From the NCBI GenBank assembly GCA_963695095.1, contig CAVOFT010000001.1, forward strand, positions 1,152,001 through 1,216,000: a stretch of 64,000 bases of DNA, written 5' to 3'. The notes under the pieces are model-generated. The model ran no database searches, was not told where the DNA came from, and was given only the letters and a program-made list of their open reading frames with translations. Shown one piece after another: positions 19,815 through 45,122 of the stretch (positions are counted from its first letter, which is position 1; every line of letters begins with the position of its first letter). This DNA is from an uncultured bacterium (GTDB lineage Bacteria > Krumholzibacteriota > Krumholzibacteriia > JACNKJ01). Position numbers and translations under genes: made by a program.

Positions 19815-21737
19815 ATGAAGAAGCGAACCCCCGCCCGCCGCGCCCTGGCCCTGCTGGCGATCCCCCTGGCGGCCATCGCCCTGCTCAGCGGCTGCGAGCG
19901 CACGACGCCGAGCGAGACTCCCCCGGACGCCGACGTGGCCGCCAGCTTCGCGGCCAGCGCCCAGTCCGCGGCCACCGTGAACGAGAACCTCCAGCTCGCC
20001 CAGCTCTTCGCCAATCCCATGGCCAGCGCCACCGGCGACCTGGGCCTGGCCGAGGACCCCGAGTTCGACCCCTGGACCGGCCAGGGCGTGGACTTCCCCC
20101 AGCTCGCCCTCGTCAACGCCCAGGCCTTCCGCGCCGCGGCCGCCCTGCAGGTCACGGCGGCGCGGAGCGCCAGGGCCGGCCGCAAGGCCACGGCCGCGCT
20201 GCCGGCTTATGATGCCGGCCCCGGCTTCGACCGCGCCGAGGGCGACACCCTCTCGGTCGAGTACTTCAACAGCGCCGACAGCACCGGCCTGAACGCCGTC
20301 ATCGAGGCCGCGGGCCAGGACATGGTGCGCTTCGTGGCGATCCGCGATTATCCGAACGCCATCCTCTGGCAGGTGAGCCATCGCGAGAGCGAGGTGCTCA
20401 TCGACACCAACGGCACGCTCGCGGATCCCGAGGACGACAGCTACCACCGCCTCAGCATCGGCGAGACCCTGGCCAACGGCCAGGTCTCCAGCGGCTTGAT
20501 CCAGCCCGTTGCCGGCCCCGGCCCCATCGGTCCGGACACCCTGGTCGAGGCGGACCTGCGCGTTGACGACCCCTCCTTCCACCCCTTCCAGGCCTGGATC
20601 GAGACCGTCGTGCGCATGGAGATCGGCGCCCTGGACACCGAGGGCGACGAGGTCTTCCACCGCCTCGCCAACACCGTCCACTGGAAGAGCGGCGCCGAGC
20701 AGACGGCCGTGATCGAGGCCGCCGGCGGCGGCGCGATCGTGAACGGCAGCGAGGTCACCCTCACCGCCACCTTCACCGCCGCGCCCGGCAACCCCTGGCT
20801 CGAGAGCGTCGAGGATCACATCCGCGCCAACCTGGGCGAGCTCGAGGACGAGGGCGACGACCTGCTCCTCGAGATCGGCCGCGTCTCCACCTTCGACGGC
20901 CAGACCGCCGAGGGCGATTCGCCCAGCGCCACGGTCACCTTCACCCCCGAAGACCCCGTCGGCGTCGGCGAGGAGCCCTGCGGCGGCAACTTCGAGGAGG
21001 AGATCTTCTACGCGGCCGGCTGGTGGCTGCAGCACGCCCAGCGCCAGGTGGAGATCAGCTGCGCCGGCGCCGGCAGCTACCATCTGCACCTGGACTTCCT
21101 CGACGGCAGCTCTCTGGATCGCACGATCACCTGGGACGGCGCCGGGGCCGCCACGCTCACCGAGAGCCGCCCGGACGGCGTCAGCGTCGAGGGCGAGTTC
21201 AACGAGAGCAGCGGCGAGTACAGCGTGATCACCACCTTCGCCGCCGGCAGCGACCCCGTGAGCCGCGAGCAGACCGGCACCATCCTGCCGGGCAGCCTCG
21301 CCGCCCGCGACGAGTTCTTCTGGCAGGACGACCACGCCGACTACCGGACCTTCACGGCCACCGAGACCGCGGAGGGCTGGACGGCCACCGGCCAGCACGT
21401 GAAGGGCGGGCTCACGGAGACCTTCAGCGTCACGGGCACGGCCAGCACCCTGACCGGCGAGTGGAGCCGCACGGCCGCGGGCGTCAACGCCAGCGGCGAG
21501 TACACGCTCGAGGCCCTGGACGCGGGCGGCGCGCACCTCGTCTTCAGCGCGCGGGACACCCTCGCCGAGGGCAACCCCAGCGCCGTGGGCGACTTCTGGT
21601 ACGCCGCCGACGGCAGCGGCCACGGCACCCTGGTCTACACGCAGTTCGGCCACACGGTGACCTACAACGTCAGCTGGACCGGCGACGGCGCCGGCACCCT
21701 CAGCGACGGACAGGGCAACACGATTCCCCTGGGCTGA
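19815..21737 (+). CDS. Large acidic, beta-rich lipoprotein of unknown function
   Basis: GAGGAGG RBS, lipobox LLSGC, strong GC3 codon bias, internal repeats of about 60 aa. Confidence 0.8.
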   Translation: MKKRTPARRALALLAIPLAAIALLSGCERTTPSETPPDADVAASFAASAQSAATVNENLQLAQLFANPMASATGDLGLAEDPEFDPWTGQGVDFPQLALVNAQAFRAAAALQVTAARSARAGRKATAALPAYDAGPGFDRAEGDTLSVEYFNSADSTGLNAVIEAAGQDMVRFVAIRDYPNAILWQVSHRESEVLIDTNGTLADPEDDSYHRLSIGETLANGQVSSGLIQPVAGPGPIGPDTLVEADLRVDDPSFHPFQAWIETVVRMEIGALDTEGDEVFHRLANTVHWKSGAEQTAVIEAAGGGAIVNGSEVTLTATFTAAPGNPWLESVEDHIRANLGELEDEGDDLLLEIGRVSTFDGQTAEGDSPSATVTFTPEDPVGVGEEPCGGNFEEEIFYAAGWWLQHAQRQVEISCAGAGSYHLHLDFLDGSSLDRTITWDGAGAATLTESRPDGVSVEGEFNESSGEYSVITTFAAGSDPVSREQTGTILPGSLAARDEFFWQDDHADYRTFTATETAEGWTATGQHVKGGLTETFSVTGTASTLTGEWSRTAAGVNASGEYTLEALDAGGAHLVFSARDTLAEGNPSAVGDFWYAADGSGHGTLVYTQFGHTVTYNVSWTGDGAGTLSDGQGNTIPLG

Positions 21738-24227: not shown

Positions 24228-24392
24228 CTACTCCTCGATGGCGACGATGTGCATCGGGTTGATCTGCACGCGATCGCCTAATTCTTGCACCATCACGAAC
24301 CAGCCGTCGGGGTGGATCTCCACGACCTTGCCCTTGAAGAGCCGATCGGCGCTGGTGATGACCTTGATGACCATGCCTTGCTTGAGGTCCAT
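24228..24392 (-). CDS. 54-aa small protein, possible Sm/Hfq-like fold (not in ORF track)
   Basis: MDLKQGMVIKVITSADRLFKGKVVEIHPDGWFVMVQELGDRVQINPMHIVAIEE*; GAGGAG RBS; GC3-biased codons; has its own promoter. Confidence 0.75.
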   Translation of the reverse strand: MDLKQGMVIKVITSADRLFKGKVVEIHPDGWFVMVQELGDRVQINPMHIVAIEE

Positions 24393-24568: not shown

Positions 24569-24620
24569 CTCTCTGCACCCGGAGATCCCGGCGCATCCGC
24601 AGAGAAAAGGAGCACGAGCC

Positions 24621-24893
24621 ATGGCCGCCAATCGCTTCGTCGAGGTCCTGAAGTCCTGGGCAGGATCTCCCGTCACGATCATCAACCCGCAGAGCTACAC
24701 GGTCTCGAAGATCACCGATGGCATTTCCTTCGAGTCCTACTCCGCCCAGCTCACCACCGCGGCCGAGGACTACATCCAGGTGACCTTCGCGCACAAGAAG
24801 CAGGGCGCCGACCAGCCGGTCGAGCAGTTCATCCCGGTGGCCTGGATCAAGCGCATCAGCGTCTGGCAGAACCAGCGCTACATCCAGCTCTAG
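24621..24893 (+). CDS. 90-aa hypothetical protein, possible Sm-like fold
   Basis: AAGGAG RBS; MAANRFVEVLKSWAGSPVTIINP...VEQFIPVAWIKRISVW. Confidence 0.75.
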   Translation: MAANRFVEVLKSWAGSPVTIINPQSYTVSKITDGISFESYSAQLTTAAEDYIQVTFAHKKQGADQPVEQFIPVAWIKRISVWQNQRYIQL

Positions 24894-24928: not shown

Positions 24929-24963
24929 GAAGCCGGGCGCCCTGTAGGGGCGGCCCGGCTTCT
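24929..24963. terminator. Hairpin between convergent genes
   Basis: GAAGCCGGGCGCCC...GGGCGGCCCGGCTTC. Confidence 0.55.
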
Positions 24964-24987: not shown

Positions 24988-25752
24988 CTAGAAGACGCCG
25001 GCCAGCCAGGCCTGCAGCGAGACGAAGCGGCCCAGCAGCAGGCTGATGCGCGCCATCACCGTGTAGCCGAAGGCGGCGCCGAAGGAGACCATCAGGAAGT
25101 AGATGCCCACCCGGCTGATGCCGCCGAAGACGCCCTTGTGCTCGCGCGAGAAGTAGAAGTAGACCAGCCCCGCGAAGACGCCCACCAGCACGATCAGGTT
25201 GTTGATGCCCTCGGCCACGGTCGCCGTGCCCAGCACCGGCTTGATCGTGCTGTTGATCTGCTCCATGGCGTTGGACTGCAGGAACACGTAGAGGCGCAGC
25301 CCCGCCGCCATGCCCATCACGAAGGCCAGGGGCCAGCGGCTGAAGTAGGCGATCTTCGGGATCAGGCGCGTGAAGAAGAGCAGGCCCAGGATGAGCGGGA
25401 TGTAGTAGGAGATGCTGATGTGATTCACGAGCTGGGCCGAGGCGATCTGCGCCGGGCTCAGCGTGCCGTCGACGAGGGCATTGCCGGCGTAGCGCACGCC
25501 GTCGACGATGACCTGGTCCACCCAGATGTAGCTGAACTCGCCCCAGCCGCGCAGGATGCTCTCCGGCCACCAGAGGTTGCCGAAGAGGTTCGGGTGCACC
25601 TGGCTCCAGAAAGCCATGCACATCCAGTAGGCCGCCGAGACCCCCGTGAACAGGTGCTCGGCGAACTTGTAGAAGGGGTTGTCCTTGTACAGAAAGCTGA
25701 AGATGGCCAGGGTCAGCAGCGCCGCCAACCAGACCCCGAATGTCTCCGCCAT
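24988..25752 (-). CDS. Multi-pass membrane protein (GlmL/DUF6754 operon)
   Basis: 'FSFLYKDNPFYKFAEHLFTGVSAAY', 'LMVSFGAAFGYTVMARISLL'; about 6 TM segments. Confidence 0.8.
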   Translation of the reverse strand: MAETFGVWLAALLTLAIFSFLYKDNPFYKFAEHLFTGVSAAYWMCMAFWSQVHPNLFGNLWWPESILRGWGEFSYIWVDQVIVDGVRYAGNALVDGTLSPAQIASAQLVNHISISYYIPLILGLLFFTRLIPKIAYFSRWPLAFVMGMAAGLRLYVFLQSNAMEQINSTIKPVLGTATVAEGINNLIVLVGVFAGLVYFYFSREHKGVFGGISRVGIYFLMVSFGAAFGYTVMARISLLLGRFVSLQAWLAGVF

Positions 25753-25764
25753 CGGCTCTTCCCC

Positions 25765-26616
25765 CTAGTACTTGCGCTGGCGACGCCGCTCCACGAGGAA
25801 CGCGACGTTGCCGATCACGATGAAGAGGACGATCACCAGGTGCGCGATGCTCTGGGCCGACATGCCGACATTCGCCCGGCCGAGCGCGGGGACGATGCTC
25901 TTGTCCATGAGCAGGCGTTCGAATTCGGCCGCGCCCGACAGGCCGCCCAGGATGCCCCGGCACTGGCCCGAATGCACGTAGGGCACCACCTCCGTCACCT
26001 GCACGGCGGTGCAGCCCGTGCTCATGGGCTTGTTGTAGGGGTCGGCCGCGTACTGCACCCACTCCACCGTGCCCGGATAGCCCGCCGAGAAGCTGAAGAT
26101 GAAGTCGATGTTGGCCAGGTTCTCGATGCCCTGCATGATCGGGTAGCTGGCCGTGGACTGGCCGCGCGTGTCCACCGGGAAGGTGCGCGTGAAGCTCTCG
26201 GCGATGGACTTGATCACCACCTCGTTGCCGGCCTTGTAGCCGAGGTTGATGAAGTCCTGGCCGTACTCCAGCTGGTGACGGCCGACGGCCACCCGGTCCA
26301 GGATGTCCCGGCTCATGAAGACGCCGTCCGGCCACAAGCACATCACGATGATCTTGTGGTGGCGCTGGATGAGCAGCTCCAGCACGGCGTCCGCCATCGG
26401 GTGCACTTCGGGCAGCGTGCTCGGCCCGTACTCGAAGGAGCAGAGCACGGTGCTGCCCTCGGGGAGGGCATCGAGGGCGCTGTAGACGGCCTGGACGTGG
26501 GGGGAGATCTTGACCGGCATGCTGAAGGGCCACACCAGCGGCAGGGCCACGCTGAGGGCGATCATCAGGTAGATCCAGCGCCGGTCCAGGCGACTCACCT
26601 TGGCGAGAAAGGACAT
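25765..26616 (-). CDS. Membrane-anchored protein with an alpha/beta soluble domain (GlmL/DUF6754 operon)
   Basis: N- and C-terminal TM segments; 'YGQDFINLGYKAG', 'PYVHSGQCRGILGGLSGAAEFE'. Confidence 0.8.
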   Translation of the reverse strand: MSFLAKVSRLDRRWIYLMIALSVALPLVWPFSMPVKISPHVQAVYSALDALPEGSTVLCSFEYGPSTLPEVHPMADAVLELLIQRHHKIIVMCLWPDGVFMSRDILDRVAVGRHQLEYGQDFINLGYKAGNEVVIKSIAESFTRTFPVDTRGQSTASYPIMQGIENLANIDFIFSFSAGYPGTVEWVQYAADPYNKPMSTGCTAVQVTEVVPYVHSGQCRGILGGLSGAAEFERLLMDKSIVPALGRANVGMSAQSIAHLVIVLFIVIGNVAFLVERRRQRKY

Positions 26617-26626
26617 CCGCGCGCTC

Positions 26627-27331
26627 CTACTCTTCCCCGAGGAAGGACTTCTCGATGCCGAGGATCAGGCGCAGGCTGGTGGAGACGACGCCCAGCGCAA
26701 TGCCGATCATGATCGCCCGCTGCCCGGCCGTGTTCGGATAGGTGTAGATCCAGTCGGCCACCTGCTCCAGGCGCAGGCCGCTGAAGAAGCCCGTCTCCGG
26801 CAGCCAGGCCGTGAAGGTCTGCCCCAAGGGCACCCGGCCCAGCATCACCACGATGCCGGCCGCGAGCAGGATCGTCGCCTCCAGGTTGCGGGCGCGGAAG
26901 GCGCGGTAGCTGGCGCTGGCCACGTAGAAGGCGAGCAGGGCGTACATCGTCGCCGACAGCGGCGTGAAGATGTACCAGTAGATCCAGAAGAAGTGGCTCT
27001 CCGGGTGGTTGACGTGCGTGCCCGCCAGATAGCGCGCCTGCGGCCCGAAGTAGCTGTGCCAGTTCAAGCCCACCCAGGCCATGAGCAGGAAGCCGACGAT
27101 GGTGACGATGCTGAAGGGCCAGCCCCGCTTGCGCTGGATGATCTTGAGCCCCTGCAGCTTGATCAGGTTGGCGGCGCCCAGGATGATGGCGAAGGACGCC
27201 AGGATGTCGAAGAACTGGCTGAAGTCCTGGCCGAGGTGGCCGATCGGGTCATGGGGGACGAACCAGCTCACCAGGGTGAGCAGCCCCACGAAGATGAGAA
27301 TGCCCAGCGGGATCCAGCGCTTGAAGAGCAT
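26627..27331 (-). CDS. Multi-pass membrane protein (GlmL/DUF6754 operon)
   Basis: 'PLSATMYALLAFYVASASYRAFRARNLEA', 'AGQRAIMIGIALG...LRLILGIE'. Confidence 0.8.
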   Translation of the reverse strand: MLFKRWIPLGILIFVGLLTLVSWFVPHDPIGHLGQDFSQFFDILASFAIILGAANLIKLQGLKIIQRKRGWPFSIVTIVGFLLMAWVGLNWHSYFGPQARYLAGTHVNHPESHFFWIYWYIFTPLSATMYALLAFYVASASYRAFRARNLEATILLAAGIVVMLGRVPLGQTFTAWLPETGFFSGLRLEQVADWIYTYPNTAGQRAIMIGIALGVVSTSLRLILGIEKSFLGEE

Positions 27332-27337
27332 GGCCGC

Positions 27338-28672
27338 TTACTCCCCTCCGCCGCCACCGGCACCCGAGAAGAGCCGGGTGATGTCCAGCCAGTCGGGCAG
27401 GTCCAGGCCCAAGGCCTCCACGCTGACGTAGACCACGCCGAGCACGAGGGCCACCATGAAGATCAGCTTGCCCACGTCCTGCCCGCGGATCGAGCCGATC
27501 AGCTTGCGCTCCTTGGACAGGTAGGCGCTGGCGGCGAAGAACTCCTCGCCGATCAGCGTGTAGTCGCAGGCGGTGACGAAGAAGGGCAACTGCGCCGGGC
27601 TCGCCGTGCCGGCGATCTGGATGGCGCCGATCGAGTTGCCCGTCTCGGCGAGAATCAGGCTCTCCGCGTAGAACTTGCCCTGGTAGAAGCAGGCCGCCGG
27701 CCGCTGGCGCAGCATGATCCCGTCCACCGCCGCCGCGTAGGCGAACTGATCGTCGGTGAGGTAGTGGATCATGTCGTCATTGTAGAGGTCAGGCCGGCCC
27801 GCGCTGAGGTAGGCCTCTCGCACCACCTCGCGGGCGTGGGCCATCACCAGCGAGCGGCTGACCGGCACCTCCAGCGGCGTCTCGTACTGCGCGGTCATCT
27901 TCGCCACGTAGCCGAGCACGTTCACGCCCGCCAGGGTCTCGATCTGGTCCATGTCCTGGATGCCGGGGATGAAGAGCACCGGCTGGCCCATCTCGGTGGC
28001 GCGGCCGACGGCCTCGTCGAAGGCGGCCAGGCCGGCCACCGGGCGCAGGTAGATGTCGGCGCTCTGCGCGCGCAGAATCCAGTAGATGATGGCCGCGCTG
28101 AGGACGAGCACGGCCAGCAGCATGCCCCAGCGGCCGCGGTTGAACCACTGGGCCACGCTCGCCGCAGGGGTGGCGAGCAGGATGGCGGCCTCGCCGCCCG
28201 GGCCCCAGGCCTCGACGCGGTAAAAGTAGGCCCGCCCCGTCTCGATCTCGCCGCCGACGTCCGTGAAGCTGGCCCGCTCCTCGCGGCCGCCCGTGGCGCC
28301 GCGCTGGCCGACCCGCAGCCAGTCGAGGCGCTCGGGCGCGACGCCCGGCCGGGCCTCGGCGCGGAAGACGCGGTAGCCCGCCACCAGGCCGCTGCCGTCG
28401 TCGCTGGCCGAGCGCTGCCAGGTGATCTCGATGGCGCGGCCGTTGTCGTCGGGCACGTCGATGGCGGCGAGCGCCCGGGGCGGTGCCGGCGCGAGGGCGG
28501 CGGCTGGGGCCGCGGCGCTCAGGCTGTCCCCGGCGATGGGGGCCGGCAGCGACTGCGCTAGCGCCGGGGCGAGGGCCGGGCCCGCGAGCAGGCCGAGAAG
28601 GGCGGCGAGTAGGGCCAGCGTCTGGCCGCAATGGCGAAGCGCGCCTGGCTGCTGAGGCGTCCGGCTGGGCAT
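27338..28672 (-). CDS. DUF6754-like membrane protein with N-terminal fibronectin-III-like domain
   Basis: Signal peptide; FN3-like 'AIDVPDDNGRAIEITW...YFYRVEA'; then 'RPVAGLAAFDEAVGRATEMGQP...QLPFFVTACDYTLIGEEFFAASAYL'. Confidence 0.75.
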   Translation of the reverse strand: MPSRTPQQPGALRHCGQTLALLAALLGLLAGPALAPALAQSLPAPIAGDSLSAAAPAAALAPAPPRALAAIDVPDDNGRAIEITWQRSASDDGSGLVAGYRVFRAEARPGVAPERLDWLRVGQRGATGGREERASFTDVGGEIETGRAYFYRVEAWGPGGEAAILLATPAASVAQWFNRGRWGMLLAVLVLSAAIIYWILRAQSADIYLRPVAGLAAFDEAVGRATEMGQPVLFIPGIQDMDQIETLAGVNVLGYVAKMTAQYETPLEVPVSRSLVMAHAREVVREAYLSAGRPDLYNDDMIHYLTDDQFAYAAAVDGIMLRQRPAACFYQGKFYAESLILAETGNSIGAIQIAGTASPAQLPFFVTACDYTLIGEEFFAASAYLSKERKLIGSIRGQDVGKLIFMVALVLGVVYVSVEALGLDLPDWLDITRLFSGAGGGGGE

Positions 28673-28692
28673 GGCGGGCTCCCGGGTGGAGG

Positions 28693-29094
28693 TCACTTGC
28701 GGCGGCGCCGCCAGAAGCGCCAGTCGGGCCGGCCCTGCGCCGCCTTGCGCGCAGCTTTCTCGACCTTCTCGGCGCGGGCCAGCTCGCTCTCGTAGCCCTC
28801 GATCATCTGCAAGAGCAGCTCCAGGGTGGGCCGCTGCTCGAGCAACTGGGTGTAGCGCTCGTAGTTCGGCGTCTCGAAGAGCACCTGGACGAAGGGTCCG
28901 AAGAAGACCATCGCCTGCGCACCAACATAGTTGAGGGGTTTGGCGGTCTCCAAGAAGAAAATCGCGGGCACGGCCAGGCGCCGGCGCACGATCTTGCGCG
29001 CGAGGTCGGTGAGGAGCGCGAAGTCCTCTGCGGCCATGTCGGCCGGCTGGGCGGGCAGGCGGGCGGCGTTGAAGGCCGTCTCGAAGCCGTTCAC
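28693..29094 (-). CDS. Conserved hypothetical helical protein
   Basis: 'PAIFFLETAKPLNYVGAQAMVFFGPF'; GTG start overlaps the upstream stop. Confidence 0.7.
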   Translation of the reverse strand: MNGFETAFNAARLPAQPADMAAEDFALLTDLARKIVRRRLAVPAIFFLETAKPLNYVGAQAMVFFGPFVQVLFETPNYERYTQLLEQRPTLELLLQMIEGYESELARAEKVEKAARKAAQGRPDWRFWRRRRK

Positions 29095-29630
29095 GCGCGC
29101 TCCTCGCCCTTGGCGGCGGCTGCTTCGGCTGCGCTCGCCGCCTTGGCCGCAAGCGCCGCCTCATCTGGCGCCGGGGCGGCGGCCGCCAGGCGCGCCCGGA
29201 CGCAGGCCATCACGGCCTCGCCCTCGGCGCCGGCGGGCAGCAGCAGGAGCTGGCTGCGATAGTTGTCCAGGCGGGAGCCGGGCGGCAGGGTGAGCAGCTT
29301 CAGGCGCTCGCCGGCGCGGGCATAGCCGCGGAACTCGCTCCAGCGGCGCTGGCGCCGGTAGAGCAGGTTCTTCACCTGGACACTCTCGTCGCTCAGGCGA
29401 AAGGAGGTGGGCAGCAGGAACTGCGAGAGGCTGGCGAGGAGCAGGAGGCCGGCCACCGCGGTGAGCAGGACGCTCCCCGACAGGCTCCAGGCGAAGGCGA
29501 GGGTGAGCAGGCAAACGGAGAGCGCGAGCCCGCCGCGCAGGGGATGGGCGGGCAGCAGCCAGACGCGCCAGGCGAGCTCCGTGCCGGGGGCGGCTGCCGC
29601 CCGCTCGCCCTGGCTCTCCGCTGCCGTCAC
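29091..29630 (-). CDS. Two-TM protein with a PH-like soluble domain
   Basis: Two TM segments followed by 'PTSFRLSDESVQV...RRWSEFRGY'. Confidence 0.65.
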   Translation of the reverse strand: MTAAESQGERAAAAPGTELAWRVWLLPAHPLRGGLALSVCLLTLAFAWSLSGSVLLTAVAGLLLLASLSQFLLPTSFRLSDESVQVKNLLYRRQRRWSEFRGYARAGERLKLLTLPPGSRLDNYRSQLLLLPAGAEGEAVMACVRARLAAAAPAPDEAALAAKAASAAEAAAAKGEERA

Positions 29631-29639
29631 GCCCGCCTC

Positions 29640-30770
29640 CTAGTCCGTCTCCACCATCTCGAGGTTGGCGCGGGGCAAGAGCACCTCGCGCCCGTCGGCG
29701 AGGCGGGCCTTGGCCACGCGCACGAGCGTGCCGCTCTCCATGCGCTGCAGGTCCGGGGGCAGGCTGGTCACGCTGCCCAGGAGGCCGAAGTAGGGCGCCC
29801 GGATCACGCGCACCAGGCTGCCTTCTTCGATGCCCGTGATGCGGGACTCGTCGAAGACACGGCCGCTGATCTCCTCGGGGGGCAGGGGGATGATCACCTC
29901 GGGCCGAATGACGCCCGCGCGGATCTGGGTGGCCCCGTTCAGGCTGGCCAGGCGGCCGGCGTGGGACTTCAGCAGCTCGAAGGTGCGCTCGGCGATGGCG
30001 ATGCGGCCGAAGCCCTCGGTGAGCACCAGCGCGGTCACGATCTCCTCGCCGCCGGTGATGGCGACGCCGAGATCGTAGCCGAGCAGGGGTTTGAGGTCCT
30101 GGTAGTCGAAGCCGCCGACGATCACCGCCGCCGCACCCAGCTGCATCGCCTGCTTCAGGGTGGCCAGGCTGATGAAGGCGCCGCCGACGAGGATCTTGCC
30201 CTTGCAGCTCGCGTCGAGGCGGTCGCTGGTCAGTTCCTGGTCCGGCCGGTCGACCACGATCTTGATCTCGCCCTGCCGCTCGCCGCCGATGCCGAAGATG
30301 CCCTGGATGAACACGCCCGTCGTCTCGACGATGACGCCCTCCTGGGGCAGCTCCTCGGTCACCTTGCCTTCGATGTAGGCGTCCACTTGCACGGGAATGG
30401 GCGCTTCGCGCAGCACGACCTGGCCGGTGACGCCCGAGATGCTCTCGACGGTGCCGTCGGCGGGGCTGGCCAGGGTGCTCTTGAAGAAGCCGAAGATGCC
30501 CCGGCTGCGCGCCATCGGCTCGCCCTTCTTCACCCGCTCGCCCTCGTGCTTGAGCATGGACTCCCCGACGTCGCCCGGGTCCACGTTGAGCTGACCGGCG
30601 ACGTTGACCATCTGCACGTTTCCGGGCAGCTCCGTGGCGGCGACGATCGTCTGCGGCGAGACGGCATCGCCGGTGGCGACCCGCACCTCGCCCCTGAGGG
30701 GCAGCATGCGGACCTTGGCGACGCGGGCCTCCTTGAGGACCTTCAGTCCGGGCGTGTAGGCGTGGGCCAT
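29640..30770 (-). CDS. Conserved protein with barrel-sandwich-hybrid (biotin/lipoyl-like) motifs
   Basis: 'GEVRVATGDAV', 'GERVKKGEPMA...SPADGTVESIS', 'IQGIFGIGGE', 'LNGATQIRAGVIRPEVII'. Confidence 0.75.
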   Translation of the reverse strand: MAHAYTPGLKVLKEARVAKVRMLPLRGEVRVATGDAVSPQTIVAATELPGNVQMVNVAGQLNVDPGDVGESMLKHEGERVKKGEPMARSRGIFGFFKSTLASPADGTVESISGVTGQVVLREAPIPVQVDAYIEGKVTEELPQEGVIVETTGVFIQGIFGIGGERQGEIKIVVDRPDQELTSDRLDASCKGKILVGGAFISLATLKQAMQLGAAAVIVGGFDYQDLKPLLGYDLGVAITGGEEIVTALVLTEGFGRIAIAERTFELLKSHAGRLASLNGATQIRAGVIRPEVIIPLPPEEISGRVFDESRITGIEEGSLVRVIRAPYFGLLGSVTSLPPDLQRMESGTLVRVAKARLADGREVLLPRANLEMVETD

Positions 30771-30797
30771 CGTGGCCTTCCTTCCTTGGCGGGCGCG

Positions 30798-32656
30798 CTA
30801 GACGGCGGCGCCCTGCGTGACTTCGCTCTCGGGGTACTCGGCGGTGGCAGCGCTCCACTCGCGCAGCCTGGCGATGCGCGTGGCGTCCTCGGGCAGGGTG
30901 AAGGGCTGCCGGCCGCGGCCGTCGAAGATGAGGCCGACGACCCCGCCGCGCAGCTCGGTCTGCACTTCCTGGCCCTTGCCGCTGCCGATGTCGATGCCCT
31001 TCGCCGGCCGCAGCACCGCCCGCACCGGATCCTCGTAGGCGGCCGGCACCAGGAACAGCTCGCCGTGGGCGAGTTCGCGCTGGAGCGTCTCGCCGCCGGG
31101 CAGCTCGAGGCTGATGTCCATCAGCTTGCGGCCGGGCTTGGCCGCGCCCACCGGGGCCACGCAGGTGCCGAGATGGATGAGGCAGTCCTTGTCGAAGACC
31201 TCGGTGGCGGCGCGCTCGTTCACGGTGGAGAGCACGCCGAGCTGCGGCATCATGAAGATGGAGTCCACGGCGAGCTGGGTGACGCCCTCGGGCAGGAAGG
31301 CGTCGATCAGCATGCAGCGCCGCCTGGTGGCGGCGCGGCGCGTGGCAGAGCACGCCGCCCGAGCCGACGAGCAGGTCCAGGCTCATCATGTCGACGAGGG
31401 TCTCGCCCGAAGCGCTCTGATCGAAGGCGTCGGAGATCGTGCGCTCCTTCTGGACGCCCTTGAGGCCCACCGCGAACTGCTTGTGCTGGATGAAGGCCAG
31501 GCGCAGCGCCTCGCGGGCGATGGCCTGCTCGATCTTCAGCTCGTCCAGGGTCTGCGGAATCGTCGTCGGCCGGATCATCTTGTTGCCGATGCGGTTCATG
31601 CAGCTCCTGCTCGTCGATCTCGAAGCGGCACCCAGCGCAGCACGTTGGCGAGCCCGGCCTCGGCGAGCACGTTGCAGACGCTGTAGCTCATGCCCAGGTT
31701 GGCGCTCACCGTGCGGTTGAAGACGCCCTGGAAGACGCTGAAGACGTCCGTCGTGGCGCCGCCGATGTCCACGCCGACCACGCTGATGCCGGCGCGGCGG
31801 GCGACCGTCTCGATGATGGCGCCCACGGCGCCCGGGCGTGGGCATGATCGGCGCGTCGGTCCAGCTCATCAGCTTCTTGTAGCCGGGCGCCTGGGCCATC
31901 ACGTGCTCCATGAAGAGCTCGTGGATCTCGTCGCGGCTGGGCGTGAGGTTCTCGCGCTCCAGCACCGGCCGGATGTTGTCGACCACCTTGAGATCGGTAA
32001 CGTTGCCGAGCGTCTCCCAGATGGTCTGCCGCGCTTCCTTGTTGCCGGCGTAGATGACGGGCAGCTTGTAGCTCATGCCCAGGCGCGGCTTCGGATTGGC
32101 GGCGGCGAGGATCTCGGCCAGCTCGACGACGTGGCTGACCGTGCCGCCGTCGATGCCGCCGGAGAGCAGGATCATGTCCGGCCGCAGCTGGCGGATGCGG
32201 CGCGATCTTCTCGTGGGGCAGGCGGCCGTCGTTGCTGGCCAGCACGTCCATCACGATGGCGCCGGCGCCCAGGGCGGCGCGCTGGGCGCTCTCGCCCGGT
32301 CATCGACTTGACGACGCCGGCCACCATCATCTGCAGGCCGCCGCCCGCGCTCGACGTGGAGATGTAGATGTCCACGCCGCGGTCGCCCGCCATGGGCGTG
32401 ATGATCGTCTCGCCGTCGAGGAGCCGGCGCTCGGGGTTCTTCTGACGGCGAGCTCCTCCACCTCGAGCACCGCGTTGAGCACGCCGCGCGTGACGTCCTC
32501 GAAGGGCGCCTCCACGGTGGTGGGGGCCTCGCCGCGGAAGGTCTGCCGGTACTCGCCGTCCACCAGCTCGATCAGGATGGCCTTGGTGGTGGTGGAGCCG
32601 CAGTCCGTGGCTAGGATGGAACGGGCCTGGGCGTAATCCCGCTGCTTCTCGGACAC
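30798..32656 (-). CDS. Glutamate mutase L (GlmL/MutL)-like ASKHA ATPase, about 617 aa after repairing about 7 frameshifts
   Basis: 'TDCGSTTTKA', 'STSSAGGGLQM', 'PDMILLSGGIDGG', 'MPTPG', 'VDIGGATTDVFS', 'RTVSANLGMSYS' and 'LVGSGGVL' are spread over several frames. Confidence 0.8.
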
Positions 32657-32733
32657 GTCAACCTCTGCCTGGGTTCGAGCATGACAAGGCACTGCCGGAG
32701 CCGATCCGACGGTGCAAGCGCTTGAATGCGTGC

Positions 32734-32762
32734 ATCCTAGGGAATTCGGCCTGGAAAATCAA
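32734..32762 (-). promoter_or_regulatory. Sigma70 promoter of the GlmL-like operon
   Basis: Minus strand TTGATT-N17-TAGGAT. Confidence 0.55.
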
Positions 32763-34597: not shown

Positions 34598-35671
34598 TCA
34601 GGGCGCGCAGCCGGCATCCAGCCAGCGGCCGGCGAAGAAGCCGCCGCGGCCGGGGCCGCTGCGGAAGTGGCCGGCCAGGGTGCCCATCAGGGTCTCGGTC
34701 TCGTCGATCCAGTCGCCCTCGAAGCTGCCGGCGCCGCCGCTGCCGACGGGATCAGCCGCCCAGCTGCCGCGCAGGAAGCCGCGGAAGCTGCCGTCCCGGG
34801 CAATCCACTTGCCGCGGAAGCGCTGCTCGCCCTCGTCGGTGACGCCCCAGTGGCCGCGCAGGTGGCCGAGCAGCTCGCCCTCGTAGCTGAGGAAGGCGCC
34901 GCGGAAGATGCCGCGCAAGGCGGCCTCGCCCGGCCGATGCACCCAGATGCCCGCGAGGAAGCCGTTGGGGCAGTCCAGGATGGCCGGCGCCTGCAGGGAC
35001 ATCTGGTTGCCCAGCTCATCGACGTCCAGCAGGCCCTCGTAGCCGTCCAGGTCCGCCACGGGCAGGCTGGTGGTCGCCGGTCCCATCGCGATCGTGAGGG
35101 CGTTCGCCTCCGGGGCGTCCGGCGTGGGATCGATGACCTGCAGGAGCAGGCCGTCATAATGGGTGGTCGTGAGCGAGTGCAGGTCGACGACCTTCACATC
35201 CTCGCGGGGGAAGACCACCCAATCGGTCTGCCGCTCGAAGGCGATGCGGCGCAGGACCACGATGCCGCCGCGATCGACGCGGATCGACCCGGACCAGTCC
35301 GTCGCGGTCTCGATGTCCGGGTTGCCGGCGAGCTGGCCCCAGCTCAAGTAGAGATAGTGGACCTGGACGCCGGGCGTCGCCAGCATGGCCCGGATCTCGG
35401 GACCCATGCAGTGGTTGTCCCCGGCGGCGACGGCCAGCTCGAAGCGGTGGCGGAAGAAGTTGGGCTCGCCGAAGCCCGGCTCCTCATCCTCGGTGCCGTA
35501 GCCACCGTTGGCTTCTTCGAGATCGAGGTTGAGGTCGCTGTAGAGCTCGGCGTCGTAGAGCTCGGCCTCGGGATCGGCGCTGACGGCCTCGCTGCCTCCG
35601 AAGAGGCTGTTGCAGCCGGCGGCGCCCAGGGCGAGCAGGCCGATGAGCAGCAAGAGCGGAGTGAGTCGCAT
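34598..35671 (-). CDS. Lipoprotein with a Gly/aromatic beta-repeat C-terminus
   Basis: GAGGAG RBS, lipobox AAGC, repeated FxGxW/GxLxGxW strands. Confidence 0.8.
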   Translation of the reverse strand: MRLTPLLLLIGLLALGAAGCNSLFGGSEAVSADPEAELYDAELYSDLNLDLEEANGGYGTEDEEPGFGEPNFFRHRFELAVAAGDNHCMGPEIRAMLATPGVQVHYLYLSWGQLAGNPDIETATDWSGSIRVDRGGIVVLRRIAFERQTDWVVFPREDVKVVDLHSLTTTHYDGLLLQVIDPTPDAPEANALTIAMGPATTSLPVADLDGYEGLLDVDELGNQMSLQAPAILDCPNGFLAGIWVHRPGEAALRGIFRGAFLSYEGELLGHLRGHWGVTDEGEQRFRGKWIARDGSFRGFLRGSWAADPVGSGGAGSFEGDWIDETETLMGTLAGHFRSGPGRGGFFAGRWLDAGCAP

Positions 35672-35739
35672 GGTAGGTCTCCTCGTTCGCGGTTCCGGTG
35701 GGCCAGGGGTCGTCCCCTGCGGGGGACGAGCAGGGCAGG

Positions 35740-35808
35740 GCAAGGGGCATACCCGGGCAGCGTGGGGACTCGGGGTATTTCTCCAAGTGACTGGTAATGA
35801 ATGTCTTG
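35740..35808 (-). promoter_or_regulatory. Sigma54 promoter plus IHF-like site
   Basis: Minus strand GG-TATGCCCCTT-GC (35753-35740); upstream CAAGACATTCATTACCAGTCACTTG (35808-35784). Confidence 0.6.
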
Positions 35809-37423: not shown

Positions 37424-37483
37424 GCCCTGCCTTGCCCGTTGCGGCCCATCGACCCACCGCTCCCTGATCCCAGGAGGTTTCGC

Positions 37484-39001
37484 ATGTCCTGCCGGACACG
37501 CCTGGCGCTCTGCGCCGCCACCCCGCTTCTCGCGCTGCTCCTTGCCGCCGGCGCCGGGCCGGCGCAGGCCGGCTATGAAGAGATGGCCGGCCAGGTCCAG
37601 GAGATCACCCTGGACAACGGTCTCAAGATCCTGCTCCTGGAGCGCCATGACGTGCCCGTCTTCTCCTTCTGGACCTACGTCGGCGTGGGCGGCGTCGACG
37701 AGGAAGGCGGCAAGAGCGGCATCGCCCACATGTTCGAGCACATGGCCTTCAAGGGCACGCACGAGCTGGGCAGCCTGGACATCAAGCGCGAGCTGAAGGC
37801 GATGGACGCCATGGAGGAGGTCTATGCGCAGATCCAGGCCGAGCGGCTCAAGGGCGACGCAGCCGACGCCGCTCGCCTGGCCACGCTCGAGGCCCGCTTC
37901 GACGCCCTCGAGGCCGAGGCGGACGGCCTCGTCGACACGAACGCCTTCGGCAAGCTCGTCGAGGCCCACGGCGGCGTCGGCATGAACGCGATGACGAGCT
38001 GGGACGAGACGCAGTACTTCTACAGCATGCCGTCGAACAAGCTCGAGCTGTGGTGCCTGCTCGAGAGCGACCGCTTCATCAATCCGGTGCTGCGCGAGTT
38101 CTACAAGGAGAAGAACGTCATCCTCGAGGAGCGCAACATGCGCACCGAGAGCCAGCCCCAGGGGCGCCTGTTCGAGGAGTGGGTCTGCGCCGCCTATCTC
38201 GGCCATCCCTACGGCCGGCCCGTCATCGGCCACCGCAGGGATATCGAGCTGTGGAGCCGCCGCGACGCGGAGGACTTCTACCAGCGGCACTACGGCGCGC
38301 GCAACATGGTGATCGCGGTGGTGGGCGACGTCTACCGCGCCGAGATGGAGCAGCTCGCCCAGAAGTACTTCGCGAAGATCCCGGCCGGCCCCGGTCCGCA
38401 GCCCGTGCGCACGGTGGAGCCGGAGCAGCTCGGCGAGCGGCGCGTGGTGATCGAGGAGAACACCCAGCCCTTCATCTTCATCGGCTATCACATTCCGGCC
38501 AAGCGGCACGCCGACCGCCCGGCCATCGGCGCCCTGGCCAGCATCCTCGGCCAGGGCCGCGCGAGCCGGCTCAACGTGCGCCTCGTCAAGCAGGAGAAGC
38601 TGGCGCTCTTCTCGGGCGCCTTCGAGGGGCTGCCCGGAGACCGCTATCCCGCGCTCCTCACCCTGATCGCCGTGCCGAACAAGGATATCACCGTCGAGGA
38701 CGTGGAGGCGGCCATCTACGCAGAGGCTGCGCGCATCGTCGATGAGGGCGTCACCGAGACCGAGCTGGCCGGGTACAAGAGCCGCGCCCGGGCCCAGTTC
38801 ATCCGGGACCTGGAAGGCAACCAGGGCATGGCCGGCCAGCTCTGCTGGGCGCAGATGATCCTGGGCGACTGGCGCGAGCTGTTCACCCAGCTCGCGGCCA
38901 TCGACGCCGTCACCGCCGCCGACGTGCAGCGGGTGGCCGGTGAGATCTTCCGCACATCCAACCGGACGGTGGGCGTCATCAAGACCACCGTGGGCAGCTA
39001 G
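37484..39001 (+). CDS. M16 (pitrilysin-family) zinc peptidase, catalytic subunit
   Basis: Signal peptide, 'TLDNGL', HxxEH 'AHMFEHMAFKG', 'NAMTSWDET', 'HPYGRPVIG'. Confidence 0.93.
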   Translation: MSCRTRLALCAATPLLALLLAAGAGPAQAGYEEMAGQVQEITLDNGLKILLLERHDVPVFSFWTYVGVGGVDEEGGKSGIAHMFEHMAFKGTHELGSLDIKRELKAMDAMEEVYAQIQAERLKGDAADAARLATLEARFDALEAEADGLVDTNAFGKLVEAHGGVGMNAMTSWDETQYFYSMPSNKLELWCLLESDRFINPVLREFYKEKNVILEERNMRTESQPQGRLFEEWVCAAYLGHPYGRPVIGHRRDIELWSRRDAEDFYQRHYGARNMVIAVVGDVYRAEMEQLAQKYFAKIPAGPGPQPVRTVEPEQLGERRVVIEENTQPFIFIGYHIPAKRHADRPAIGALASILGQGRASRLNVRLVKQEKLALFSGAFEGLPGDRYPALLTLIAVPNKDITVEDVEAAIYAEAARIVDEGVTETELAGYKSRARAQFIRDLEGNQGMAGQLCWAQMILGDWRELFTQLAAIDAVTAADVQRVAGEIFRTSNRTVGVIKTTVGS

Positions 39002-39016
39002 GCGAGGAGGCCAACG

Positions 39017-41182
39017 ATGCTCAAGTCCCTGAAGCTGAAGACGCGTGCCTGGGGGCGGCTCGGCCTCGTCGCGCTCGCCCTGATCGCGCTCGTCCCGGCG
39101 GCCGGCCAGGCCGGCGAGAGCCGCTATGACAAGGTCGTCACTTCCCTGCCCGCGCTCCGCGACTTCCAGGTGCCGCAGGTCACGCGCGAGCAGCTCGCCA
39201 ACGGCATGGTGCTCTACCTGGTCGAGGACCACGACCTGCCGGTCGTCCGCCTCTCCGCGATGATCCGCGCCGGGCGCATCTACGAGCCGGCCGCCCAGAC
39301 GGGACTGGCCGACCTGGTCGGCGAGGTGATGCGCACCGGCGGCACCGAGCGCTACCCCGGCGACGAGCTGGACGAGCTGCTCGAGAACATGGGCGCCAGC
39401 GTCGAGACCGGCATGGACGAGGCGAACGCCAGCGCCTCCCTGAACTGCCTCACCGAGAATTTCGACGAGGTGCTCGCCGTCTTCGTGGACGTGCTGCGCT
39501 ACCCGGCCTTCCCCGATGAGAAGCTCGACCTCGCCATCACGCAGGCGAAGACTGCCATCAGCCGCCGCAACGACGACGCTTCGGGGATCGCCAATCGCGA
39601 GATCCAGCGCCTCTACTTCGGCGCGGACAGCCCCTACGCCCGCGAACCGGAGTACGATACCCTGGCCGCCATCGAGCGCGCGGACCTGGTTGCCTTTCAC
39701 GAGTACTTCTATCACCCGAACAACATGATCCTCGTGGCCGGCGGCGATTTCGACACGGCAACGATGAAGGCCAAGCTCAGCGCGGCCTTCGCCGACTGGC
39801 CGCAGGGGGAGACCTTCTTCCCGCCGGATCCCCTGATCTCCGACACGCCGATGTCGGTCAACTACATCGCCAAGGAAGACGTCAACCAGTCGAAGATCCG
39901 CATGGGGCACCTCGGCATCCGCTGGGACGACGAGCATCTCTTTCCCCTGCAGGTGCTCAACGAGATTCTCGGCGGCGGCTTCTCGAGCCGGCTCTTCAGC
40001 GAGGTGCGCAGCAAGCGCGAGCTGGCCTACGGCGTCTGGGCCTGGATGATCGTGGGCAACCACCACCGCATGCCCTTCACGGTGGGCGTCGACACCAAGA
40101 GCGAGTCGACGGTGGAGGCGATCACCATCATCATGGACGAGCTGCGCAAGGTGCGCGAGGAGCCCGTCACCGCCGACGAGCTGCGGCGCGCCAAGGAGGG
40201 CCTGAAGAACGGCTTCGTCTTCAACTTCTCCAATCCCTTCTCGATCGCCAGCCGCAAGGCTTCCTACGAGTTCTGGGGCCGGCCGGCCGACTACCTGGAC
40301 ACCTTCCTGGACAAGGTGGACGCCGTCACCGCCGCCGATATCCTCGCCGCAGCCAAGGCGCGCATCCACCCGGAGCAGATGGCGATTCTCGTCGTCGGCC
40401 GCGCGGCGGACTTCGATGCGCCCCTGGCCAGCCTCGGCTTCGGCGAGCCGACCGAGATCGACATCACCATTCCGGAGCCCAAGTTCGCCCTGGAACTGCC
40501 GGAGGCGACGAGCGAGAACCTGGCCGCCGGTCGCGCGCTGATGGACAAGGCCCTGGCGGCCCACGGCGGCGCCAAGGCCCTGGCGGCGGTCAAGTCGCTG
40601 CGTTTCAAGGGCGACTTCCTGATCAAGGAAACGGGCATGGGCCCGATGACCTTCGGTATCGTCCAGCAGCGTTTGGGCGAAGATCGCCTGCGCCTGGAGA
40701 CGACGACGCCCTTCGGCAACATGGTTCAGATCCTCACGCCGGACGCGGCCTGGGTGATCAGCCCGCGCGGCAAGCAGACCGTCACCGGGAAGGACCTGGC
40801 CGAGATGTGGCGCAGCGAAAGGAGCGACGCCCTGCACCTGCTTCGCCACCTCGACGACTATCGCGCGCTGTCCCTGGGTCGCGAGGCCTTTGCCGGGGAG
40901 GACTGCGCCGTGGTCTACCTGCAGGGTGAGGGCGACGAAGGCTACAGGGTCTTCCTGGGCGTGGATCACCTGTTCCGCGGCATGGAATACAAGGATAGCG
41001 GCCAGGCGGGGCCGGTGATGAATCTCACGACCTTCGGCGACTACGCGGCGACGGGCGGCGTGCAGTTCGCGCGCAGCTTCACGATCGACCACGACGGCAC
41101 CCCCTTCGCGACGCTGACGATCAAGGAGGTGGTGGTGAATCCGACGCTGCCGGCATCGCTCTTCGCCGAGCCCGCCGACTAG
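39017..41182 (+). CDS. M16 peptidase partner subunit (no HxxEH) with a beta-rich C-terminal extension
   Basis: 'LANGM..LVEDHDLP', 'ILGGGFSSRLFSEVR..LAYGV'; extra domain of about 230 aa. Confidence 0.88.
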   Translation: MLKSLKLKTRAWGRLGLVALALIALVPAAGQAGESRYDKVVTSLPALRDFQVPQVTREQLANGMVLYLVEDHDLPVVRLSAMIRAGRIYEPAAQTGLADLVGEVMRTGGTERYPGDELDELLENMGASVETGMDEANASASLNCLTENFDEVLAVFVDVLRYPAFPDEKLDLAITQAKTAISRRNDDASGIANREIQRLYFGADSPYAREPEYDTLAAIERADLVAFHEYFYHPNNMILVAGGDFDTATMKAKLSAAFADWPQGETFFPPDPLISDTPMSVNYIAKEDVNQSKIRMGHLGIRWDDEHLFPLQVLNEILGGGFSSRLFSEVRSKRELAYGVWAWMIVGNHHRMPFTVGVDTKSESTVEAITIIMDELRKVREEPVTADELRRAKEGLKNGFVFNFSNPFSIASRKASYEFWGRPADYLDTFLDKVDAVTAADILAAAKARIHPEQMAILVVGRAADFDAPLASLGFGEPTEIDITIPEPKFALELPEATSENLAAGRALMDKALAAHGGAKALAAVKSLRFKGDFLIKETGMGPMTFGIVQQRLGEDRLRLETTTPFGNMVQILTPDAAWVISPRGKQTVTGKDLAEMWRSERSDALHLLRHLDDYRALSLGREAFAGEDCAVVYLQGEGDEGYRVFLGVDHLFRGMEYKDSGQAGPVMNLTTFGDYAATGGVQFARSFTIDHDGTPFATLTIKEVVVNPTLPASLFAEPAD

Positions 41183-43064: not shown

Positions 43065-45041
43065 ATGCGCATCCTGCTCGCCGCGTTCGTTCTGCTCGCC
43101 GCCGCGAGCAACCCGGCAGCCGGCCCTGCCGTGCCGGCGGACCCGCTTCTCGATCTCAAGGCGAACTTCTGCCGCGCGGGCGCCGGCCTGCTGGCGGGCC
43201 GGGCGCCGCAGGCGCGGGACTACGACTGGGACATCCTCCACGCCGAGCTGCACTTCACCCCGGACTTCGCGGCCGAGACCCTCGCCGGCAGCGTGCGCTT
43301 CGACAGCCGCGCCGAGACGGCCGGCCTGGCCACCGTCAGCCTCGACTTCGACCAGGCGATGAACCTGCTCGCCGTCCGCCAGGACGGCAGCCCCGTCGCC
43401 TGGACCCACGGCGGCGATCTCGCGGTCGTCACCCTGAGCGCCCCCTTGGCGGCTGGGCAGCTCTTCAGCCTCGAGCTGGACTTCGTCGGCTCGCCCGGCT
43501 CCACCGGCTTCGGCAGCTTCACCTGGACGGATCACGGCGGCGTGCCCCTGGTCGCCACGCTCAGCGAACCCGAGGGCGCCCGCGACTGGTGGCCCTGCAA
43601 GGACGTCCCCGACGAGAAGTTCACCGCCGATCTCTACTACCGCGTGCCCAGCGCCTACTCGGCGCCGGGGCCGGGCCTGCTCCAGTCCGTCACCGATCAC
43701 GGCGACGGCAGCAGCACCTGGCACTGGCGCGAAAGCTACCCGATCAACTCCTACCTGATCGCGCTCACGGTGACGAACTACCAGCACTACACCGATTGGT
43801 ACGTGAGCAGCAGCGGCGACTCGCTGCCCATCGAGAACTACGTCTACCCGGAGAACTACACGAACTCGGTCGAGGACCTCAGCATCACGCCGCTCGCCCT
43901 GGCCATCATGGACAGCCTCTTCGGCGAGTATCCCTTCATGGACGAGAAGTACGGCCACATGGTCTTCCACTGGGCCGGCGCCATGGAGCATCAGACCTGC
44001 ACGAGCATGGGCAACGCGGTGCTCGGCGGCGGCCACTACTACGACCGCATCGTGATGCACGAGCTGGCCCATCAGTGGTTCGGCGACGCCGTGACGCTGC
44101 AGGACTGGGAGAACGTCTGGCTGAACGAGGGCTTCGCGAGCTACTGCGAGGCAATCTGGTTCGAGTACGTGGGTGGCCAGGCCGGCCTCACCACATGGAT
44201 GACCCAGACCACCTCCGACTTCGTCGGGCCGGTGTACAACAACCCCGCCCTCTTCGGCAGCGTGGTCTACCGCAAGGGCGCCTGGGTGCTGCACATGTTG
44301 CGCTTCATGCTCGGCGACGAGACCTTCTTCGGCGCCCTGCGCTACTACTACGGCCAGCACCTCTACGGCAACGCGCATACCACGGACCTGGAGGCCGACC
44401 TCGAGGCCTACACGGGCCGGGACCTGACCGGCTTCTTCCAGCAGTGGGTCTACGGCGAGAACAGACCGGTCTACCAGTGGGCCTGGCAGGCCAGGAGCGG
44501 CACCGGCGGCTGGTGGCTGGACCTGCAGATCCGCCAGGTGCAGACCAATGCCGGCCTGTTCACGATGCCTCTGCCCTTTCGCGTGACGACGGCTCTGGGC
44601 CCGCTCGACCTGCGCGTGGACAACGACGCCTGGCATCAGAACTACAGCCTGCCCTTGGGACCCCAGGAACCGCTGGACCTCGCCTTCGACCCCGACAACT
44701 GGGTGCTGGAGTCCAGCAGCGAAGTGGCCTTCGATCCCACGGCCGCGGGAGGGGTCCCGCTAGTGGCCACGGGCCTCGCCGGCTGCTACCCGAATCCCTT
44801 CAATCCGTCCACGCGCGTGGCCTTCACGCTGGCGACGCCGGGTCCCGTGCGCCTGGAGGTCTTCGACACCGCGGGCCGCCGTCTGCGCGTGCTGGCGGAG
44901 GGGCCGCGCCCGGCGGGGCCGCAGAGCCTCGCCTTCGACGGCCTCGATGCGCACGGCGAGCCCCTGGCCAGCGGCGTCTACCTGCTGCGCCTCAGCGCCG
45001 GCGGCCGGGAGTTCAGCCAGCGCGCCGTCTTGCTCAAGTAG
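43065..45041 (+). CDS. Secreted M1 aminopeptidase with FlgD-Ig C-terminus
   Basis: GAMEH, HELAHQWFG..WLNEGFASY, YRKGAWVLHMLR; 'PNPFNP..SGVYLL'. Confidence 0.93.
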   Translation: MRILLAAFVLLAAASNPAAGPAVPADPLLDLKANFCRAGAGLLAGRAPQARDYDWDILHAELHFTPDFAAETLAGSVRFDSRAETAGLATVSLDFDQAMNLLAVRQDGSPVAWTHGGDLAVVTLSAPLAAGQLFSLELDFVGSPGSTGFGSFTWTDHGGVPLVATLSEPEGARDWWPCKDVPDEKFTADLYYRVPSAYSAPGPGLLQSVTDHGDGSSTWHWRESYPINSYLIALTVTNYQHYTDWYVSSSGDSLPIENYVYPENYTNSVEDLSITPLALAIMDSLFGEYPFMDEKYGHMVFHWAGAMEHQTCTSMGNAVLGGGHYYDRIVMHELAHQWFGDAVTLQDWENVWLNEGFASYCEAIWFEYVGGQAGLTTWMTQTTSDFVGPVYNNPALFGSVVYRKGAWVLHMLRFMLGDETFFGALRYYYGQHLYGNAHTTDLEADLEAYTGRDLTGFFQQWVYGENRPVYQWAWQARSGTGGWWLDLQIRQVQTNAGLFTMPLPFRVTTALGPLDLRVDNDAWHQNYSLPLGPQEPLDLAFDPDNWVLESSSEVAFDPTAAGGVPLVATGLAGCYPNPFNPSTRVAFTLATPGPVRLEVFDTAGRRLRVLAEGPRPAGPQSLAFDGLDAHGEPLASGVYLLRLSAGGREFSQRAVLLK

Positions 45042-45122
45042 GGGAGGGCGAACTCCGCTTCTCGGCTCGGCACGGTGTCTGCTATACTGGACACCGCTAC
45101 ACCCTGGGAGAGGAGGACCCCT

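Follow-up and report, generated by a model that had tools for sequence, protein, structure and literature searches.

An eight-gene operon (genes A to H, all on the minus strand, 24988-32762) was analysed in a 64,000-nucleotide stretch of the genome of an uncultured bacterium of the Krumholzibacteriota (assembly GCA_963695095.1, contig CAVOFT010000001.1); this whole stretch is called the window below. The operon encodes four membrane proteins (E, F, G and H) on which a cytoplasmic unit (A, B and D), built around a long GlmL-like ATPase of the ASKHA (actin/Hsp70-fold) type, is predicted to dock. An uncharacterised multi-subunit membrane complex tied to such an ATPase had been proposed in an initial annotation of the window, and this proposal was upheld: the gene order is conserved elsewhere, no described complex was matched, and docking of A on E is predicted. 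The reading preferred here, with a probability of about 0.5, is an importer resembling ArsAB and energy-coupling factor (ECF) systems and driven by the actin-fold ATPase. A more specific version is put forward more tentatively. The system may be a dual-mode transporter, primary and secondary, in which a repurposed actin/Hsp70-fold chaperone of B12 enzymes would act as a shared motor gripping a coupling helix of exchangeable four-subunit permeases, and which was kept in ocean bacteria with 1-Mb genomes.

Loci were collected by a scan with B; the best 80 of 95 confirmed loci were kept, 54 of which had room on both sides. The full set was present in 49 of these 54, with the order of the window in 48: 41 loci read A-B-D-E-F-G-H, seven also include C, one has D first and five have B alone. 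In three genomes with a lone B (WOR-3-type), A, B and three to four E genes stand at separate places. Among 121 genomes of the Marinimicrobia (the phylum of G154), A was found in 77 and E in 76, and all 76 have A, also where the two genes are unlinked; holders of A and E include genomes near 1 Mb. In the phylum of the window (151 genomes) A was found in 21 and E in 40, and all 21 A-positive genomes have E.

Seventeen genomes from five genera were without A and B and kept E-F-G-H intact; in one of them (G014) E stands right next to the upstream gene, at the position of D-A-B in relatives. The 17 form one clade nested among ATPase-holders (support 96/93 and 99/93). Genome G089, with B beside E at a contig end, was left out of this set. 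An apparent absence of A and B in the same-genus genome G006 was not counted, its contig starting just past the place of the operon, probably at an assembly gap. The motif GRxxExG of E (GRATEMG in the window, 27986-28006, minus strand) was present in every ATPase-linked copy (13 of 13), every long E protein (120 of 120) and every metagenome copy (95 of 95), and in 0 of the 17 ATPase-less genomes. Conserved-column retention fell in E from 0.66 in ATPase-linked to 0.56 in ATPase-less copies (16 ATPase-less rows; L141 was left out for its split G), the lost columns being G42, R43, E46 and a few others. The corresponding values were 0.65 and 0.62 for F, 0.57 and 0.63 for G, and 0.71 and 0.71 for H. 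Extra cassettes in ATPase-holding genomes kept GRxxExG in 9 of 12 cases.

A complex of A and E was modelled from alignments that included no ATPase-less genome. The model scored 0.64, against 0.00 for the best of three controls, and passed a mark reached by 116 of 157 solved pairs and by 2 of 215 mismatched ones; this mark is rough here (own alignment). The model thus supports binding of A to E but does not prove it. Model runs shared at least 95% of contacts, and the predicted local distance difference test score (pLDDT) of the partners was at least 76. The core of the predicted interface consists of E residues 38-49, which hold the GRxxExG motif, and of A residues 110-115, 161-170 and 224-227; these segments of A are kept in three annotated GlmL proteins. 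A pass owed to already solved structures is unlikely, because no solved sequence relative of A and no fold relative of E was found at E ≤ 0.001. In this model the predicted contact with the GRATEMG helix is made by the inserted, B12-binding-like domain of A. That the motif loss and the complex model fall on the same helix of E is a strong coincidence, not a replicated test.

Gene A (30798-32656, minus strand; about 610 residues in relatives) had been called a GlmL-like ASKHA ATPase, and its match to Pfam MutL (PF13941) and its kept motifs agree with this, though the frame is broken in the assembly. Compared with relative L005, the gene carries seven single-base indels (six insertions, one deletion) and is not an open frame; its pieces together cover the whole PF13941 model. 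No in-frame stop was found over 610 aligned codons, 2 of 293 invariant columns were altered (0-6 in 24 of 25 intact rows, 27 in one distant row), and further genes are split elsewhere in this two-contig genome. For these reasons the frameshifts are probably assembly or sequencing errors rather than decay, and intact relatives stood in for A in all analyses. The sequences DCGSTTTK, DIGGATTD and GSGG, which we take to be the phosphate-1, phosphate-2 and adenosine motifs, were invariant or nearly so across 33 rows. A from the intact relative L003 scored 221 against a cut-off of 475 (NF040745), 206 against 600 (NF040744) and 151 against 204 (TIGR01319), and A is 27-31% identical to annotated GlmL. 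The inserted domain gave weak Pfam B12-binding matches in 3 of 3 sequences tested (E 0.059, 0.025 and 6e-4). Comparison of the middle-domain profile with three GlmS sequences gave no match, so the likeness to a B12-binding domain comes from the weak Pfam matches only. Searches of PDB sequences with the A and B profiles returned nothing significant.

The initial annotation had placed the ATPase with the membrane complex and not with a mutase, and had seen no B12-binding gene in the window. Six B12-binding matches were found in this genome, all of them outside the window. Glutamate mutase E was found neither in this genome nor in 40 others, 20 of them A-positive, by a search whose control matched 1 of 14 and under the cut-off; PF09043 (ornithine/lysine aminomutase) was likewise found in 0 of 1 and 0 of 40, its control matching nowhere. 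Because the scores of A fall well short of the GlmL and Or-4 cut-offs and the 40 genomes yielded no glutamate mutase E, A appears not to be a mutase helper. A strict association of the GlmL-like clade with some mutase, raised in the initial annotation as a counter-case, fared unevenly. It failed for glutamate mutase E; methylmalonyl-CoA mutase occurs in 46 of 46 A-positive genomes, but also in 30 of 34 A-negative genomes tested, a distribution that speaks neither for nor against a B12 link. A glutamate mutase has been credited to Dictyoglomus turgidum (Dtur_1345-1347), according to the accessible part of PMC5167688.

Protein B (29640-30770, minus strand, 376 residues; model pLDDT 86) is modelled as two nested barrel-sandwich-hybrid domains, a swiveling domain (RraA/PA/phospho-His-like) and a C-terminal KOW/SH3 barrel, with domain fold matches at Z 7-9. 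Its swiveling domain was aligned with the phospho-His swiveling domains of enzyme I and PPDK at Z 8.7, with a root-mean-square deviation (rmsd) of 2.7 over 102 residues; no conserved His was found in residues 152-296 (40 rows). Across B no Cys or His is invariant, hence no iron-sulfur motif was present. The barrel-sandwich-hybrid fold and the missing biotin/lipoyl-lysine motif, both claimed for B earlier, were borne out: Biotin_lipoyl scored 14.7 bits against the required 22.1, and the hairpin reads GIFGFFK. K97 is invariant, yet it lies outside what we presume to be the position of the modified-lysine motif. Atlas searches with B and G returned only unnamed or own-family clusters.

Protein D (28693-29094, minus strand), a small helical protein present in 63 of 80 loci, is fused to the N-terminus of A in three genomes, and A and B are fused in three others. 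These natural fusions indicate that A, B and D probably form one unit. Stand-alone A-B fusions of a second class, 843-983 residues long, were also seen (L150 3566-6514, L151 8878-11406 and L152 1764-4298). Protein C (29091-29630, minus strand), with two membrane helices and a PH-like domain, was found by tblastn in 7 of 80 loci and is taken as an accessory; one relative gave a weak bPH_6 match (E 0.049).

Among the eight proteins, family matches in Pfam and NCBIfam were limited to A (PF13941) and E (PF20539), and no ABC-type (ATP-binding cassette) ATPase family was matched. Protein E (27338-28672, minus strand; PF20539 at E 4e-115; model pLDDT 93) has a signal peptide, an FN3-like domain, a membrane helix, a cytoplasmic DUF6754 domain and a second membrane helix; in the model the DUF6754 domain is a six-stranded Rossmann-like fold between the two helices. 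Of the earlier label FN3+DUF6754, the DUF6754 part stood; Pfam gave no FN3 match on E of this genome, and the FN3 label derives from names and from Pfam matches of longer relatives. Fold searches with E gave only generic Rossmann matches (best Z 10.4, many ties), and Foldseek gave none at E ≤ 0.001. Protein F (26627-27331, minus strand) is a six-helix membrane protein outside the families searched, with 2855 representatives at E ≤ 0.001. Protein G (25765-26616, minus strand) has two membrane anchors around an extracytoplasmic domain and is the most variable subunit between cassettes. Protein H (24988-25752, minus strand) is polytopic, with four helices by hydropathy and about six by eye, and gave no family match. 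Positive-inside counts place the DUF6754 domain of E in the cytoplasm and the soluble domain of G outside; a natural fusion, P0220, with the G soluble domain ahead of FN3 and E, agrees with this predicted topology. No subunit mapped onto a described complex in profile, PDB and fold searches. The idea of an inverted repeat, with E paralogous to G and F to H on opposite faces, found no profile support. Homologs of F with a WD40 or FHA domain were seen in a set (P0316, P0381, P0210, P0150) that also holds E homologs with a PMT-type glycosyltransferase or PQQ propeller in front.

Three E-F-G-H cassettes and one A were found in the genome of the window, the two extra cassettes standing without A or B. 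These two cassettes (L001 11986-15513 and L002 7229-10532) differ in setting: one, in which the frames of E and G are split, is found near the ATP synthase operon, and the other stands behind an aminotransferase gene in the vicinity of a phosphate-uptake operon (labels by eye in both). Tandem cassettes occur in metagenome loci, and between them G is the least identical subunit (32-47%) and E the most (49-83%). Cassettes seemingly served by one A are only 31-55% alike. The D-A, A-B and G-E fusions, together with the extra E-F-G-H cassettes per genome, suggest that one ATPase unit is shared among exchangeable membrane modules. This sharing is counted from genes; sharing in the cell is what we infer. 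Two loci carry two tandem E genes per F-G-H (L103 6984-8994, L104 6601-8441).

Under the importer reading, the membrane unit E-F-G-H and the cytoplasmic actin-fold unit A-B-D would together form a solute importer. The outer domain of G, the most variable between cassettes, would select the cargo, and F and H would make the solute path. A-B-D would take hold of a single helix of E; through a cycle like that of a cofactor-release chaperone, A would pull E so that the path is reset or the cargo unloaded; ATP turnover would thus boost or gate transport. One A-B-D unit could serve several cassettes. If A is absent, E-F-G-H would act as a facilitator or secondary carrier, in the way that ArsB works when ArsA is missing. 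The cargo may be a small organic nutrient.

Several points weigh against this importer. Transport, its direction and its cargo are all matters that we infer, ATP hydrolysis is attributed to A from its motifs alone, and gene A is broken in this assembly. The loss of A was one event, so the 17 genomes are not 17 tests, and the persistence of E-F-G-H without the ATPase in one clade means that coupling is not obligatory. Absence of A was scored at E ≤ 1e-30, loosely only for G014, and that of B at E ≤ 0.001; in one of the 13 ATPase-linked rows, L139, the short contig carries B and no visible A. Three of the 12 extra cassettes in ATPase-holding genomes (L106, L107, L109) are without GRxxExG and are possibly a second origin of ATPase-independent modules. 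No E-F-G-H was found within 9-19 kb of the stand-alone A-B fusions L150-L152. Neither F nor H matched Pfam or NCBIfam transporter families (sequence profiles only), and none of the recurring neighbours is a conserved gene naming a cargo.

Four other explanations were weighed. In one, which is unlikely, E-F-G-H is a passive facilitator and A a docked enzyme, a kinase or ATP-dependent hydrolase, that traps or converts the solute, ATP being spent on chemistry. Glycerol kinase with its facilitator is the model for such a trapping enzyme. Kinases and oxoprolinase-type enzymes are numerous among ASKHA proteins, Hydantoinase_A gave weak matches to pieces of A (E 1e-4), the conservation of A is very high (column identity 78% on average), and the membrane unit is kept without A. 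A substrate-specific enzyme, however, would hardly serve through a single A cassettes as divergent as those found here, and the nearest families of A, GlmL and Or-4, are of chaperone type (PMC4682846, in its accessible part). That GlmL is the reactivating chaperone of a B12 enzyme (same source, same part) is also a starting point for a cobamide-handling system, which is judged quite unlikely, in which E-F-G-H would import B12 or a related cofactor and A would unload it or hand it to methylmalonyl-CoA mutase. The docking domain of A weakly matches Pfam B12-binding in all three sequences tested, A and B recall the ATPase and swiveling domain of dehydratase reactivases, every A-positive genome tested has the mutase, and a B12-binding subunit is kept in 5 of 5 genomes near 1 Mb. 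The mutase is, however, nearly as frequent in A-negative genomes, and the recurring neighbours, inspected by eye, include no B12 gene clustered with the operon. Neither E nor G is similar to GlmS or GlmE or has a conserved His, and that a genome holds two to four divergent cassettes suggests several cargoes.

A transmembrane sensor is very unlikely. G, with outside add-ons on E and F, would sense a ligand, E would switch the ATPase unit, and the KOW and barrel-sandwich domains of B would act on a cytoplasmic target. The best Foldseek match of B is indeed NusG, through the KOW barrel, but KOW/SH3 folds are generic and many rows tied. Varied outside domains occur on E among relatives (FN3, PQQ propeller), and one long F homolog carries FHA and one WD40; a sensor that lost its output should nevertheless decay, whereas F, G and H are intact and conserved in the 17 ATPase-less genomes, and some twelve membrane helices exceed the needs of a simple sensor. 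An export or envelope machine appears equally improbable, with the Hsp70-fold ATPase ratcheting at a translocation channel or flipping a lipid-linked substrate. Hsp70 motors do work at organellar translocons and the actin-fold proteins PilM and GspL at secretion platforms, and one E protein (P0210) is fused to a PMT-type glycosyltransferase domain. Against this, the genes that recur next to the operon include none for secretion, pili or the envelope, no peptide-binding domain was detected in A, and the distribution is patchy, the system not being found in 111 of the 151 genomes of the window phylum.

The importer reading was also compared with known systems. A has its ASKHA motifs and inserted domain in common with GlmL/MutL and Or-4 (PF13941, NF040745, NF040744, TIGR01319); it differs from GlmL in a C-terminus longer by about 130 residues, in an insert near 393-404 and in its setting, true glmL lying between glmS and glmE and gene A with B, D and the membrane cassette. 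ECF group II transporters use one energising module for several exchangeable membrane modules whose genes lie scattered over the genome, a likeness to the one A and several scattered, exchangeable cassettes seen here. Here, in contrast, there is no ABC ATPase and no match to EcfT or an S-component, and the exchangeable unit consists of four proteins with soluble domains on both faces. The barrel-sandwich-hybrid domain of B resembles that of RnfC and NqrA (Z 7.3, rmsd 2.2-2.8, 65 residues); only that domain aligns, and the membrane genes are unrelated to the Rnf and Nqr families. Reactivases of diol and glycerol dehydratases pair an Hsp70-like ATPase with a swiveling domain (PMC7674605, accessible part), as A plus B would, whereas here a membrane unit is the predicted client, B has barrel-sandwich and KOW domains in addition, and no solved structure matched in sequence. 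ArsB works alone as a carrier, with ArsA as an optional cytoplasmic ATPase, according to the accessible part of PMC12415280. The 17 genomes with intact E-F-G-H and no A or B may resemble this arrangement, but ArsA belongs to the P-loop ATPases and ArsB is a single polypeptide, against an actin-fold ATPase and four unrelated membrane subunits here. The system would be like ECF and ArsAB in logic and is outside both by membership.

The layout of a tightly packed operon was confirmed by strand and coordinates, by intergenic gaps of -4 to 27 bases and by ribosome-binding-like sequences. The single promoter proposed before A, a sigma-70-like TTGATT-17-TAGGAT (32734-32762, minus strand; 8 of 12 consensus matches), scores under the scanner threshold, but all 7 close relatives examined have a similar sequence at equal spacing upstream of A, identical in three. 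The terminal hairpin is real (24929-24962, minus strand, GC-rich, 3' of H between convergent genes; folding z -3.1 in a 96-nt stretch) but has no U-run. Two small, convergently placed open reading frames lie past the operon end (24229-24390, plus a frame on the opposite, plus strand at about 24620-24893; the former on the minus strand) and perhaps encode small beta-barrel proteins; the latter is partly matched in G009 and G001. An M16 peptidase pair and M1 and M14 peptidases with C-terminal FlgD-like sorting domains (Pfam) occupy 37439-41182 and 43065-47516 of the window. The initial annotation had taken such peptidases as a hint to peptide or amino-acid use. This hint did not hold: the M16 pair was syntenic in the three close relatives checked, synteny was confined to close relatives, and neighbours differ by lineage; a peptide cargo was accordingly rejected, the neighbourhood not being conserved. 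Predicted lipoproteins without a Pfam match lie at 19815-21737 and 34598-35743.

Literature searches on the system, DUF6754, PF13941, Marinimicrobia with glutamate mutase, GlmL, and ASKHA with transporter, with subscription journals mostly outside their scope, found no description. If the importer reading is true, a new way of coupling ATP to membrane transport, derived from an actin-fold chaperone, would stand beside ABC, P-type and ArsA systems. With the helix named and an ATPase-less clade at hand, the model is directly testable. It would put right what is likely a cause of glutamate mutase pathways being called in error, and would bear on how GlmL grips its client, the predicted docking surface being conserved in GlmL. 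DUF6754 would gain a function class, as would three membrane families without names whose members number in the thousands, and the families concerned are common in Marinimicrobia, including genomes near 1 Mb.

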